A stretch of 64,000 bases of DNA from Escherichia coli (GTDB lineage: Bacteria > Pseudomonadota > Gammaproteobacteria > Enterobacterales > Enterobacteriaceae): assembly GCF_030013205.1 (NCBI RefSeq), contig NZ_CP122648.1. One strand, written 5' to 3'. Shown here piece after piece: positions 12,777 to 22,385 of the stretch (positions within the stretch are counted from its first letter, which is position 1; each line of letters begins with the position of its first letter). The position numbers and the translations under genes are program-made. The notes beneath the pieces are model-generated. The model did no database searches. It saw nothing but the letters and a program-made list of their open reading frames with translations, and had not been told where the DNA came from.

Positions 12777-15526
<2,750 letters not shown>

Positions 15527-16177: not shown

Positions 16178-16240
16178 AATTTCAGGGAGATGTCATGGAT
16201 AGGGTGGACAGTTGCAGCCACTGCATTAGGGGATAATCAG

Positions 16241-16909
16241 ATGTCCTTCACTCGACGCAAATTTGTTCTGGGGATGGGAACAGTAATCTTTTTTACTGGT
16301 TCTGCGTCTTCTCTGTTAGCGAACACGAGGCAAGAAAAGGAAGTTCGGTATGCCATGATTCATGACGAGTCACGGTGCAATGGCTGTAATATTTGCGCCC
16401 GCGCATGCCGTAAAACTAACCACGTCCCCGCTCAGGGAAGCCGTTTATCGATAGCACACATTCCAGTCACCGATAACGACAACGAAACGCAGTATCACTA
16501 TTTTCGCCAGTCATGCCAGCACTGTGAAGATGCTCCTTGCATCGATGTTTGCCCGACAGGGGCGTCGTGGCGTGATGAGCAGGGGATCGTGCGGGTAGAA
16601 AAATCGCAGTGCATCGGCTGCAGTTATTGCATTGGCGCTTGCCCGTACCAGGTTCGCTACCTTAACCCTGTCACTAAAGTGGCAGATAAATGTGATTTCT
16701 GCGCTGAGTCCCGACTGGCAAAAGGCTTTCCGCCCATTTGCGTCAGCGCCTGCCCGGAACACGCCTTGATCTTTGGTCGCGAAGATAGCCCAGAAATTCA
16801 GGCGTGGTTGCAGGAAAATAAATACTATCAATATCAGCTACCTGGTGCCGGGAAACCGCATCTGTATCGCCGATTCGGTCAACATTTGATTAAAAAGGAA
16901 AATGTATGA
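16241..16909 (+). CDS. ydhX: Tat-exported 4Fe-4S ferredoxin-type subunit YdhX
   Basis: Internal start MSFTRRKFVLGMG carries a twin-arginine motif; several CxxCxxCxxxCP motifs; 222 aa. Confidence 0.88.
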   Translation: MSFTRRKFVLGMGTVIFFTGSASSLLANTRQEKEVRYAMIHDESRCNGCNICARACRKTNHVPAQGSRLSIAHIPVTDNDNETQYHYFRQSCQHCEDAPCIDVCPTGASWRDEQGIVRVEKSQCIGCSYCIGACPYQVRYLNPVTKVADKCDFCAESRLAKGFPPICVSACPEHALIFGREDSPEIQAWLQENKYYQYQLPGAGKPHLYRRFGQHLIKKENV

Positions 16910-17691
16910 ACCCGTCGCAACATGCTGAACAGTTTCAGAGCCTGTTGGCGAACTATGTGCCACAGTTCACTCCCGAATTTTGGCCGGTGTGGTTGATCAT
17001 TGCCGGACTATTGCTGGTTGGGATGTGCTTGGTGCTGGGGCTGCATGCCTTGCTTCGTGCTCGTGGCGTGAAGAAATCAGCCACCGATCATGGTGAGAAG
17101 ATTTATCTTTACAGCAAAGCGGTCAGATTATGGCACTGGTCGAATGCGTTACTCTTTGTATTGTTGCTGGCAAGTGGGCTGATAAATCACTTTGCGCTGG
17201 TGGGCGCAACTGCGGTTAAAAGTCTGGTTGCGGTGCATGAAGTTTGCGGATTTTTGTTACTGGCATGCTGGCTTGGCTTTGTTCTGATCAATGCCGTTGG
17301 GGGTAATGGTCACCACTATCGCATTCGTCGTCAGGGTTGGCTGGAGCGAGCGGCAAAACAAACGCGATTTTATTTGTTTGGTATTATGCAGGGGGAAGAA
17401 CATCCTTTCCCGGCAACAACACAGTCTAAATTTAATCCCTTACAGCAGGTCGCCTATGTTGGTGTCATGTATGGATTGCTGCCGTTGTTACTATTGACGG
17501 GGCTGCTGTGTCTCTATCCGCAAGCCGTGGGAGATGTGTTTCCTGGCGTAAGATACTGGTTATTGCAGGCGCATTTTGCTCTGGCATTTATAAGCCTCTT
17601 TTTTATCTTCGGTCATCTTTATCTTTGCACCACGGGGCGTACGCCACACGAAACCTTTAAAAGCATGGTCGATGGCTATCACCGGCACTAA
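16906..17691 (+). CDS. ydhU: PhsC/NrfD-like integral-membrane cytochrome b-type subunit YdhU
   Basis: 261 aa, hydrophobic; 4-nt overlap with ydhX. Confidence 0.88.
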   Translation: MNPSQHAEQFQSLLANYVPQFTPEFWPVWLIIAGLLLVGMCLVLGLHALLRARGVKKSATDHGEKIYLYSKAVRLWHWSNALLFVLLLASGLINHFALVGATAVKSLVAVHEVCGFLLLACWLGFVLINAVGGNGHHYRIRRQGWLERAAKQTRFYLFGIMQGEEHPFPATTQSKFNPLQQVAYVGVMYGLLPLLLLTGLLCLYPQAVGDVFPGVRYWLLQAHFALAFISLFFIFGHLYLCTTGRTPHETFKSMVDGYHRH

Positions 17692-17694
17692 CGA

Positions 17695-18507
17695 ATGATC
17701 ATTACACGAGCAGACCTGCGAGAATGGCGTATCGGAGCGGTGATGTATCGCTGGTTCCTGCGCCATTTCCCACGCGGCGGTAGTTATGCCGATATTCATC
17801 ATGCACTGATTGAGGAAGGATATACGGACTGGGCGGAGAGTCTGGTTGAGTATGCGTGGAAAAAATGGCTGGCGGATGAAAACTTCGCGCATCAGGAAGT
17901 TTCCTCTATGCAAAAATTGGCCACAGATCCCGGAGAGAGAGCATTTTGTAGTCAGTTTGCCCGCAGCGACGATCATGCTCGCATCGGCTGTTGTGACGAT
18001 AACGCCAGAATCGCAACCGCTGGGTATGCTGCACAAATTGCCAGTATGGGTTATAGCGTGCGGATTGGAAGTGTCGGCTTTAACAGTCACATTGGCAGCT
18101 CCGGTGAGCGTGCACGGGTTGCTGTAACCGGCAATTCTTCGCGGATAAGCAGCGCTGGAGATAGTAGTCGGATTGCGAATACCGGAATGCGAGTACGCGT
18201 TTGTACATTGGGTGAACGGTGTCATGTCGCCAGTAATGGTGACCTGGTGCAAATCGCCAGCTTTGGCGCAAACGCCAGAATTGCCAACAGCGGCGACAAT
18301 GTATACATCATTGCCAGCGGTGAAGATTCAACAGTAGTGAGCACGGGCGTGGTCGACTCAATTATTCTCGGGCCAGGGGGAAGCGCCGCACTGGCATATC
18401 ATGACGGCGAAAGAGTTCGCTTCGCCGTCGCCATTGAAGGTGAAAACAATATTCGAGCCGGAGTCCGCTATCGCCTTAATGAACAGCATCAGTTTGTTGA
18501 GTGCTGA
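17695..18507 (+). CDS. ydhT: uncharacterised protein YdhT with internal degenerate short repeats
   Basis: 270 aa; repeats of the type ARIA/SRIS/VRIG with about 13-aa spacing in the central region. Confidence 0.85.
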   Translation: MIITRADLREWRIGAVMYRWFLRHFPRGGSYADIHHALIEEGYTDWAESLVEYAWKKWLADENFAHQEVSSMQKLATDPGERAFCSQFARSDDHARIGCCDDNARIATAGYAAQIASMGYSVRIGSVGFNSHIGSSGERARVAVTGNSSRISSAGDSSRIANTGMRVRVCTLGERCHVASNGDLVQIASFGANARIANSGDNVYIIASGEDSTVVSTGVVDSIILGPGGSAALAYHDGERVRFAVAIEGENNIRAGVRYRLNEQHQFVEC

Positions 18508-20554: not shown

Positions 20555-20662
20555 AGCGATTCTCCTTCTGATAACGCATACGAAGACAGTGTAAATCTTT
20601 TAACGTATTGGATACAGAGAAGAAACAGAGGGAAAAAAGGAGAAGACCAGATTAAGAAAATC

Positions 20663-20739
20663 TGGTGCGTCCGAGTGGACTCGAACCACCGACCCCCACC
20701 ATGTCAAGGTGGTGCTCTAACCAACTGAGCTACGGACGC
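20663..20739 (-). tRNA. valW: tRNA-Val (anticodon GAC), valW-type
   Basis: Reverse complement reads GCGTCCGTAGCTCAGTTGGTTAGAGCACCACCTTGACATGGTGGGGGTCGGTGGTTCGAGTCCACTCGGACGCACCA with encoded CCA. Confidence 0.95.
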
Positions 20740-20743
20740 AGGA

Positions 20744-20820
20744 TGGTGCGTTCAATTGGACTCGAACCAACGACCCCCACCATGTCAAGGTGGTGCTCTA
20801 ACCAACTGAGCTATGAACGC
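20744..20820 (-). tRNA. valV: tRNA-Val (anticodon GAC), valV-type
   Basis: Reverse complement reads GCGTTCATAGCTCAGTTGGTTAGAGCACCACCTTGACATGGTGGGGGTCGTTGGTTCGAGTCCAATTGAACGCACCA; 4-nt spacer to valW. Confidence 0.95.
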
Positions 20821-21128
20821 AACGTTGTAGGTGACAACGGGGACGAATATTAGCGGCAGAGTGGGAAGGTGGCAAGAGGCAAAACGTAATTTTCTGCGCT
20901 ATTTCGACCGTTTGCAGAGCTTTTAAGCAAATTGGCTATATTTTGTTGATTTGCAAGGGCGATTTTTATTCAGGATCGCATTTACATCTGACACAACCCA
21001 ATAATCTGTGTATCAGAGTTTAAACAGAGTTGTTTGCCACCATCTCAAAATCTGTCGTGGATAAATCCTCCGTAGCCTTTACACTTAGGTAGCAATAAAG
21101 GCACACAGATGCAGCAAAGGAATAAATC

Positions 21129-22385
21129 ATGGGATCTGATGCGAAAAACTTGATGAGCGACGGGAACGTGCAAATTGTTAAGACCGGCGAGGTCATTGGC
21201 GCGACGCAACTTACTGAAGGTGAGTTAATTGTTGAAGCTGGCGCAAGAGCCGAAAATACCGTGGTCACGGGGGCTGGCTGGTTGAAAGTGGCAACCGGTG
21301 GGATCGCCAAATGTACACAGTACGGCAACAATGGCACGCTATCGGTCAGTGACGGTGCCATTGCCACAGATATTGTTCAGTCAGAGGGAGGCGCAATTAG
21401 TCTCTCTACGCTCGCTACGGTTAATGGCCGCCATCCCGAAGGTGAATTTAGCGTTGATCAGGGTTATGCCTGCGGTTTGTTGCTGGAAAATGGCGGTAAC
21501 CTGCGTGTACTGGAAGGCCATCGCGCGGAAAAAATCATTCTCGATCAAGAGGGCGGCCTGTTGGTCAATGGGACAACCTCAGCGGTCGTGGTAGATGAAG
21601 GTGGTGAATTGTTGGTGTATCCAGGTGGGGAAGCCAGCAATTGTGAGATTAATCAGGGCGGCGTTTTTATGCTGGCCGGGAAAGCCAGTGATACGTTGCT
21701 TGCTGGTGGTACCATGAATAATCTCGGTGGTGAAGACTCTGACACTATTGTTGAGAATGGAGCCATTTATCGTCTGGGGACGGATGGCCTTCAGCTCTAT
21801 AGTTCCGGTAAGACGCAAAACCTGTCCGTTAATGTGGGTGGTCGGGCTGAAGTGCATGCCGGTACGCTGGAAAACGCGGTAATACAAGGTGGGACAGTGA
21901 TCTTGTTGTCACCCACCAGCGCGGACGAAAATTTTGTCGTAGAGGAAGATCGCGCACCGGTTGAACTGACCGGGAGTGTTGCATTACTGGACGGCGCTTC
22001 AATGATTATTGGCTATGGCGCAGATCTGCAACAATCAACGATTACTGTACAGCAGGGCGGTGTGTTGATTCTCGACGGCAGTACGGTAAAAGGTGACAGT
22101 GTCACTTTCAGTGTTGGTAACATCAATCTGAATGGCGGAAAACTGTGGCTGATCACTGATGCGGCAACGCAGGTGCATCTGAAAGTGAAACGCCTGCGTG
22201 GAGAGGGAGCGATTTGCCTGCAAACCAGTGCGAAAGAAATTTCACCTGACTTCATCAATGTGAAAGGGGAAGTTACTGGTGATATACACGTTGAGATAAC
22301 AGATGCCAGTCGGCAAACTCTGTGTAACGCACTGAAACTACAGCCAGACGAAGACGGGATTGGCGCAACGCTCCAGCCTGCGTAA
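21129..22385 (+). CDS. ydhQ: autotransporter-passenger-like repeat protein YdhQ (no beta-barrel translocator or obvious signal peptide)
   Basis: 418 aa; Gly-rich beta-helix-type repeats with about 19-20 aa period. Confidence 0.85.
   Translation: MGSDAKNLMSDGNVQIVKTGEVIGATQLTEGELIVEAGARAENTVVTGAGWLKVATGGIAKCTQYGNNGTLSVSDGAIATDIVQSEGGAISLSTLATVNGRHPEGEFSVDQGYACGLLLENGGNLRVLEGHRAEKIILDQEGGLLVNGTTSAVVVDEGGELLVYPGGEASNCEINQGGVFMLAGKASDTLLAGGTMNNLGGEDSDTIVENGAIYRLGTDGLQLYSSGKTQNLSVNVGGRAEVHAGTLENAVIQGGTVILLSPTSADENFVVEEDRAPVELTGSVALLDGASMIIGYGADLQQSTITVQQGGVLILDGSTVKGDSVTFSVGNINLNGGKLWLITDAATQVHLKVKRLRGEGAICLQTSAKEISPDFINVKGEVTGDIHVEITDASRQTLCNALKLQPDEDGIGATLQPA

Follow-up and report, generated by a model that had tools for sequence, protein, structure and literature searches.

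The ydhYVWXUT operon of Escherichia coli ends in ydhT, one of the remaining core genes of the species without an assigned function, and the question raised by this locus is what YdhT contributes to an oxidoreductase operon, if it contributes anything at all. Here we analyse ydhT within a 64,000-nucleotide stretch of an E. coli genome (assembly GCF_030013205.1, contig NZ_CP122648.1), referred to below as the window, in which an earlier note, based on the letters alone, had pointed to degenerate short repeats in the central part of YdhT, reminiscent of beta-solenoid proteins, and had suggested a structural or scaffolding role within the YdhYVWXUT system. We propose that YdhT carries a predicted beta-solenoid spacer built from nonapeptides, that it is a chromosomal offshoot of a mainly phage-borne protein family, and that it may act as a non-redox accessory factor of the Ydh complex. 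Taken as a whole, we consider this reading somewhat better than even (probability of about 0.55).

The identity of the gene is secure. On the basis of the list of open reading frames (ORFs), the annotation, and the family match, ydhT occupies positions 17695..18507 (+), encodes 270 amino acids (aa) plus a stop codon, and is the final gene of ydhYVWXUT. The protein matches the NCBIfam equivalog NF007410 ('protein YdhT') with 487.1 bits (E 1.5e-146), above the curated cut-off of 300 bits, and the match joins residues 2-270 to profile positions 1-269 of 269. Several E. coli strains from pigs carry an annotated ydhT with 100% identical DNA, and 5417 of 5426 complete E. coli genomes contain the gene. 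Several ORFs in other frames overlap the gene, including an antisense ORF of 230 aa (window 17560-18252, -) that covers most of ydhT and further ORFs of 63-105 aa; given the strong identification of YdhT on the + strand, these are treated as by-products of the biased codon content of the repeat.

The repeats are real, and their period is nine residues. Autocorrelation with BLOSUM62 scores over aa 89-228 yielded peaks at multiples of 9 only (z=11.6 for lag 9; z=9-10 for lags 18, 27, 36, and 45), and the values at these lags were reached by none of 5000 shuffles. The motifs quoted in the earlier note (xxARIAxxG, SRISSAG, and VRIGSVG) are all present, as NARIATAG at aa 103-110, SRISSAG at aa 149-155, and VRIGSVG at aa 122-128, but the spacing of 13-14 residues ascribed to them has to be replaced by contiguous 9-residue units, lags 13 and 14 being significantly depleted (z=-2.8 and -3.0, respectively). 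Thirteen glycines (G110, G119 ... G218) recur at exact 9-residue intervals and mark the ninth position of a unit with the E. coli consensus [D/E]-x-[S/V/A]-R-[I/V]-A-S-x-G. When the orthologue profile was compared with itself using hhalign, units 3-7 matched units 8-12 with a probability of 97.4% (E 1.1e-11) and 44 of 45 columns in register, as opposed to probabilities of 0.1-5.7% in controls against the N- and C-terminal domains. Fourteen units are clear (aa 92-218; window 17968-18348) and degenerate units are found at both ends (aa ~83-91 and 219-228), the whole array comprising ~15 units over about aa 86-228 (17950..18378, +). The interval to which the repeats had been assigned, 17960-18330 (aa 89-212), covers most of this array but ends two to three units early at the 3' end. 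Neither a pentapeptide nor a hexapeptide (left-handed beta-helix, LbH) periodicity was detected in YdhT (z=-1.6 at lag 5, z=0.3 at lag 6, and no Pfam match). At the DNA level, Tandem Repeats Finder reported no 27-bp array in ydhT, only a chance 14-bp pair, and we therefore regard the array as old, degenerate, and visible at the protein level only.

Structure prediction also favours the solenoid reading. An AlphaFold2 model built on an alignment of 15 orthologues (mean predicted local distance difference test score, pLDDT, 92.1; predicted template modelling score, pTM, 0.88) places helices at aa 5-77, one strand of 4-5 residues in every 9 residues across aa 87-216, and five further strands at aa 220-269 (pLDDT 93-97). 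Within each unit of the model, the residues R-I-A-S form the strand, with the aliphatic residue pointing inward, and x-G-[D/N/E]-x-x forms a 5-residue arc. YdhT displays the generic hallmarks of beta-solenoids, namely tandem units of constant length with statistical support and, in the model, one short strand per unit, an apolar residue facing inward, arcs enriched in Gly, Asp, Asn, and Ser, and three-dimensional matches to solved solenoids. These matches are the Ca-dependent antifreeze domain MpAFP RIV (3p4g; score 15.6, 2.3 Å over 156 residues), curli CsgA (8c50; 14.5, 8.2 Å over 155), and CyaA RTX (7usl; 13.5, 5.0 Å over 107). Residues ~86-228 are thus predicted with high confidence to form a regular, flat beta-solenoid rod. 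A public AlphaFold model of YdhT (P77147) presumably exists as well.

Given the superposition of 2.3 Å over 156 residues on the MpAFP solenoid, which has 19 residues per coil, we infer two units (~18 residues) per coil and ~8 coils, a figure taken from the superposition. A strongest internal period of 18 in 49 of 139 relatives (the wider family is described below) is consistent with this geometry, as is the absence of multiples of three among the whole-unit deletions (2, 2, 5, 8, and 10 units). The same two observations weigh against a three-sided beta-helix in which three units (27 residues) would make up each turn, comparable to the helices of pectate lyases, tailspikes, or autotransporters. 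We hold such a helix to be quite improbable, notwithstanding a best period of 27 in 24 of the 139 relatives and a 27-bp DNA repeat in the homologous gene of Edwardsiella phage GF-2, which, though, equals one nonapeptide and not three.

Of the known repeat proteins, the RTX beta-rolls of CyaA block V and alkaline protease share with YdhT both the 9-residue period and the geometry of the array. An RTX-type calcium-binding beta-roll or a collagen-like segment is nevertheless extremely improbable. Collagen-like character is hinted at by weak Pfam Collagen matches in some relatives and by the annotation of the GF-2 protein gp55 as 'collagen-like', but YdhT has no G-X-Y run (no run of at least three G-x-x triplets), and Gly occurs once per 9 residues and not once per 3. 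The calcium turn GGxGxDxUx that defines RTX proteins is likewise missing, with no match to GGxGxD or G-x-G-x-D in YdhT, and neither the HemolysinCabind nor the Collagen model of Pfam matches even at E<=10. While an RTX unit consists of a 3-residue strand and a 6-residue calcium loop, the YdhT unit combines a 4-residue strand (R-I-A-S) with a 5-residue arc, and YdhT is expected to be cytoplasmic, outside any type I secretion system (T1SS) context. Cytoplasmic free calcium is too low for RTX folding.

Likeness to the remaining structural matches is one of geometry. MpAFP region IV (3p4g) has 8% sequence identity to YdhT and is an extracellular adhesin domain with 19-residue calcium-binding repeats and an ice-binding Thr/Asx face, none of which is found in YdhT. 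CsgA (8c50, 8enq) is secreted, has imperfect repeats of 19-23 residues with Q/N ladders, and assembles into amyloid fibres, whereas both ends of the YdhT array are capped by globular domains that should prevent end-to-end polymerisation. YdhT hence lies outside the RTX, MpAFP, and curli families, whose defining motifs it lacks. The beta-helical Fe-S assembly scaffold SufD/SufB (1vh4) resembles YdhT only at the level of a generic solenoid; as a SufD-like Fe-S scaffold YdhT was rejected, there being no sequence relation and no conserved set of Cys, His, or Glu ligands.

The array is flanked by two domains. An N-terminal five-helix domain, aa 1-80 (17695..17934, +), corresponds to Pfam YdhT_N (PF27195). 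Membership of YdhT in this family is very likely, the assignment being indirect and made through the 98%-identical cluster representative P0001, on which PF27195 is precomputed, as it is on all orthologues and on the phage relatives that have the same N-terminus. A Pfam scan of YdhT with a model set lacking PF27195 found nothing above threshold. Sub-threshold matches at E values of up to 10 (DUF6876, MSSS, EF-Tu D2) were dismissed as noise, and the hint of DUF6876 did not recur in a scan of 25 N-domains. At the other end, a conserved C-terminal beta domain or cap, aa 219-270 (18349..18504, +), was delimited from invariant columns, from its sharing with phage proteins, and from the predicted strands. 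It carries the motif LGxGGxAAxxYHDGxRxRFxxAxEGENxIxAGVxYxLN and is the best conserved part of the protein across the whole family, including relatives with other N-termini. The orthologue alignment contains 42 invariant columns, 20 of them within the C-terminal 50 residues. A sequence search of the PDB with whole YdhT and with profiles of the N- and C-domains found nothing at E<0.2.

None of these features suggests a redox subunit. No invariant column is Cys or His, the cysteines of E. coli YdhT (residues 85, 99, 100, 170, 176, and 270) are not conserved, and YdhT contains no conserved Cys cluster, cofactor motif, twin-arginine translocation (Tat) signal, or membrane segment. Its maximum hydropathy is 1.23 and its N-terminus has no twin-arginine motif; with such low hydropathy and no N-terminal signal, the protein is expected to be cytoplasmic. 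As a whole it is acidic, with an isoelectric point (pI) of 6.1.

On this basis we suggest that the ~15 degenerate nonapeptides fold as a rod, in which each unit would provide one short strand and an arc ending in Gly, and that the rod would rigidly join the helical YdhT_N domain to the conserved C-terminal beta domain of ~50 residues. The array would then be a length-setting spacer or scaffold and not a catalytic or ligand-specific surface, because the array differs among relatives in unit number, mostly by whole units, and shows no conservation of surface charge, in contrast to the conserved end domains. Orthologues of 317-333 aa have extra units, and natural deletion variants are missing exactly 18, 45, 72, or 90 aa. 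During laboratory evolution, a 54-bp deletion (2 units) arose in the 'ydhT_1' gene of Serratia (PMC12505973).

An improbable alternative to a spacer is that the repeats are themselves functional, with a ladder of arginines on the solenoid faces serving to bind a polyanion, be it nucleic acid, the head groups of phospholipids, or an acidic face on a partner protein. Arg occupies position 4 in 6 of the 13 E. coli units, across the family this position is Q, K, or R, the arrays of the operon-linked clade described below are consistently arginine-rich (pI 9-12), and phage relatives adjoin recombination genes. Across the arrays of 117 relatives, which range from 5 to 59 units, pI nonetheless extends from strongly acidic (4.1) to 12, the median net charge per unit is 0, whole YdhT is acidic, and family scans returned no nucleic-acid-binding family matching YdhT.

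The case for an accessory role in the Ydh system comes from gene order. In the window the order is ydhY-V-W-X-U(phsC)-T, with ydhT converging on ydhS, and the gene directly upstream is ydhU, which encodes a PhsC-like cytochrome b (16906..17691, +; ORF list and annotation). The ATG of ydhT lies 3 nt past the ydhU stop codon (junction sequence cacTAAcgaATG), and in other genera the stop and start codons of the two genes overlap (seen at loci L006 and L011). A Neighbor-Joining tree of the N- and C-domains places operon-linked YdhT proteins, whose N-domain no longer has the W-x-A-C motif seen in phage N-domains, in a single clade apart from the phage types. In all seven sampled members of this clade (E. 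coli, Jinshanibacter, Edwardsiella, Proteus, and three further genomes), ydhT is found at the 3' end of ydhYVWX(U), and this synteny, which reaches from E. coli to Proteus and Edwardsiella, holds in at least four families of enterobacteria at identities of 34-48%. What follows ydhT varies among genomes (ydhS, nap, glgP, and others), and ydhT therefore travels with the operon.

Two loci of this survey deserve separate mention. In Edwardsiella tarda CP100802.1 (L005 3690-8954), ydhY, V, W, X, and T are present and the cytochrome b gene ydhU is missing, suggesting that the membrane anchor is dispensable or replaced there while ydhT is kept; this cluster adjoins the nap nitrate reductase operon. 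On a metagenome contig from an enterobacterium, ydhT is directly followed by an AbiEii/AbiEi toxin-antitoxin (abortive infection) pair (L012 8273-10037, -).

From conserved synteny, translational coupling, absence of cofactor motifs, and cytoplasmic location, YdhT may be viewed as a non-redox accessory factor acting in the assembly, maturation, or docking of the Tat-exported, membrane-linked Ydh complex. The protein itself is soluble and represents a monophyletic chromosomal lineage, derived from a mainly phage-borne family, that has become fixed at the 3' end of ydhYVWX(U) in Enterobacterales. The structural or scaffolding role proposed for YdhT at the outset is plausible, with circumstantial support from 3'-end synteny, absence of a cofactor motif, and variable unit number.

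While a word-indexed search returned enterobacterial orthologues only, an exhaustive profile search over representatives of 50%-identity clusters identified 1,198 of them at E<=1e-3 and 493 at E<=1e-10. The best internal period is 9, 18, or 27 in 135 of 139 relatives, and the consensus of 1,378 units from 117 proteins is [D/Y/N]-[S/Y/D/G]-[A/S]-[Q/K/R]-[I/L]-[A/G]-[S/A]-S-G, individual repeats often being near-perfect (e.g. IGSSGDRAR, LAASGNSSR, LSASGDDSQ). The N-terminal domains vary across the family (YdhT_N, DUF7666, DarG-like Macro, and PcfJ-like), YdhT_N being detected by its domain hidden Markov model in 39 of 125 listed representatives of at least 200 aa. YdhT belongs to the YdhT equivalog family and appears to belong also to phrog_4433, although the latter match is weak for YdhT itself (aa 51-270 against positions 109-310 of 312; E 2e-6, 28.4 bits); relatives match more strongly, up to E 1.5e-38 for the intermediate P0085. 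A Foldseek search of BFVD retrieved uncharacterised phage proteins, DUF7666 proteins among them. Compared with phrog_4433/DUF7666 phage proteins, YdhT shares the repeat array and the C-terminal domain, but the phage members have near-identical units, varying N-domains, and a place in early/recombination regions, whereas YdhT has degenerate units and a place in a respiratory operon.

Outside the operon clade, all sampled family members were located in phages, most of them in early/recombination regions. Gp55 of Edwardsiella phage GF-2 is 33% identical to YdhT over its full length, and its gene directly follows an N-like antiterminator and precedes cIII, Erf, and SSB. Its 27-bp DNA repeat is present in 20.9 copies at 89% identity, and phage arrays therefore seem young and dynamic. 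The full-length homologue phiKX1_180 of a Komagataeibacter phage adjoins an antirepressor, the contigs that encode P0058, P0064, and P0067 also carry genes for terminase, RecT, integrase, and primase, and a single peptide pattern from the C-domain retrieved 96 IMG/VR contigs. In 80 viral loci no universal neighbour was found as a conserved partner gene; the recurrent neighbours were exonucleases, Gp2.5-like annealases, and CI-like repressors, which jointly point to the early/recombination module as the preferred region. We found no published description of the YdhT repeat or of its phage connection.

Three of the larger or composite relatives are of interest in their own right. P0067 (L009/L010 7001-8641) combines a DarG-like Macro domain, DUF7666, ~20 perfect nonapeptides, and a YdhT-type C-terminal domain, which makes it a candidate for a phage factor that counters ADP-ribosylating defences such as DarT. 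P0171 (3263 aa) has four matched stretches and no Pfam domain, and P0156 (743 aa) has ~47 units of an I-[SYF]-T-x-G repeat variant and a collagen-like N-terminus; the nonapeptide array thus serves much larger, perhaps structural, proteins too.

The phage connection gives rise to the principal rival of an accessory role, which is that YdhT is unrelated to the oxidoreductase and is a domesticated phage early gene that has kept a function in host-virus conflict (for example in superinfection exclusion, in counter-defence, or by disturbing recombination and repair), merely riding at the 3' end of the ydh transcript. Genomic context speaks for it: the full-length homologues of GF-2 and phiKX1 sit beside an antiterminator and an antirepressor, other relatives adjoin RecT, exonucleases, annealases, and repressors or are encoded on the IMG/VR contigs, and some are fused to DarG-like Macro, DUF7666, or PcfJ-like domains. 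In addition, a phage-resistant clone of Serratia symbiotica (LT-05) carried only the 54-bp ydhT_1 deletion and a dam mutation, R137H in dam_4 (PMC12505973), although the link to phage resistance is confounded by that second mutation. PADLOC identified no defence family matching YdhT, its only match being that of the Macro domain of P0067 to DarG (E 1.9e-20). Further evidence against this rival is the monophyly of the operon clade, its synteny in at least four families with differing downstream genes, the coupling of the ydhT start to the ydhU stop codon, and the loss of the W-x-A-C motif from the N-domain. The repeats of ydhT are moreover old and leave no DNA repeat, as against the 20.9 copies at 89% in GF-2, which suggests long fixation under a different regime. 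On balance, we judge this rival unlikely.

A broader scheme would accommodate both contexts. YdhT may be a domesticated member of a large and so far undescribed class of modular phage early proteins, in which the length-variable solenoid and the conserved C-domain would act as a common targeting or anchoring module for interchangeable N-terminal effectors (DarG-like Macro, DUF7666, PcfJ-like, YdhT_N) in host takeover or counter-defence, one copy having been captured by an ancestor of Enterobacterales and given a new use in the assembly or docking of a respiratory molybdo/tungsto-enzyme. This scheme is speculative, and we rate it as unlikely.

Several points weigh against a solenoid spacer serving the Ydh complex. 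The solenoid is a predicted fold, and AlphaFold tends to give confident solenoids for any regular repeat. One of the natural deletions removes five units, an odd number, two others are not multiples of 9, and several deletion variants, each seen on a single short contig, may be artefacts of assembly. The arginine-rich array of the operon clade hints at a specific surface function beyond spacing. Most of the family acts in phages with no oxidoreductase nearby, which speaks against a strictly Ydh-specific role and implies that the conserved end domains need a target more general than the Ydh enzyme. Finally, the literature contains no physical or genetic link between YdhT and the Ydh proteins and no ydhT phenotype. 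Our literature search yielded no paper on the structure or function of YdhT, and DUF7666 was mentioned in none. A 2026 classification of tungsten oxidoreductases names YdhWXUT just as further operon products (PMC13328260). Listings of ydhT in RcdA SELEX (systematic evolution of ligands by exponential enrichment) and excludon studies hold no functional information, and 'ydhT' in PMC5120140 is a typographical error for yhdT. In a phage-host machine-learning paper, the pangenome behind a ydhT feature combined Salmonella with E. coli, and the feature may do no more than tell the two apart.

The results amount to a useful annotation and not to a new kind of system, and current understanding is not overturned: YdhT adds an undescribed family to a fold class that is already known. 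The division into N-domain, rod, and C-domain can guide the design of constructs, series of unit deletions, and tests of interaction for a protein that shows no redox motif, and the link to the phage family corrects misleading annotations such as 'collagen-like protein'. To our knowledge, ydh is the sole class V tungsten/molybdenum oxidoreductase operon touched by experiment. As for the phage early-gene module, it is widespread, carries a DarG-like Macro domain in some fusions, and is a candidate for studies of host-virus conflict; the modular scheme, if true, offers the only path to greater significance.

The surroundings of ydhT provided some further observations. Only 5 nt separate the stop codon of ydhT (18505-18507) from the point at which the convergent ydhS ORF ends (18513), leaving no space for an intrinsic terminator between both genes, and PMC12288877 names ydhS-ydhT as one of the 'excludon' pairs with overlapping transcripts. 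Upstream, the longest ydhX ORF (window 16190-16909, +) starts 17 codons before the annotated start, and its product has a twin-arginine motif, SFTRRKFVLG, that fits Tat export of this Ydh Fe-S subunit; the longest ydhV ORF (13340-15526, 728 aa) exceeds the annotated 700-aa protein by 28 codons. Downstream, two tandem tRNA-Val genes are annotated at window ~20660-20860 in the matching genome, and the opposite strand of this pair contains an internally repetitive ORF of 62 aa that is spurious. Another ORF (window 21129-22385, +; 418 aa), rich in G/T/V/N repeats and annotated in the matching E. coli genome as ydhQ, 'AIDA repeat-containing protein', encodes a second, unrelated repeat protein of the beta-helix type ~2.6 kb from ydhT.
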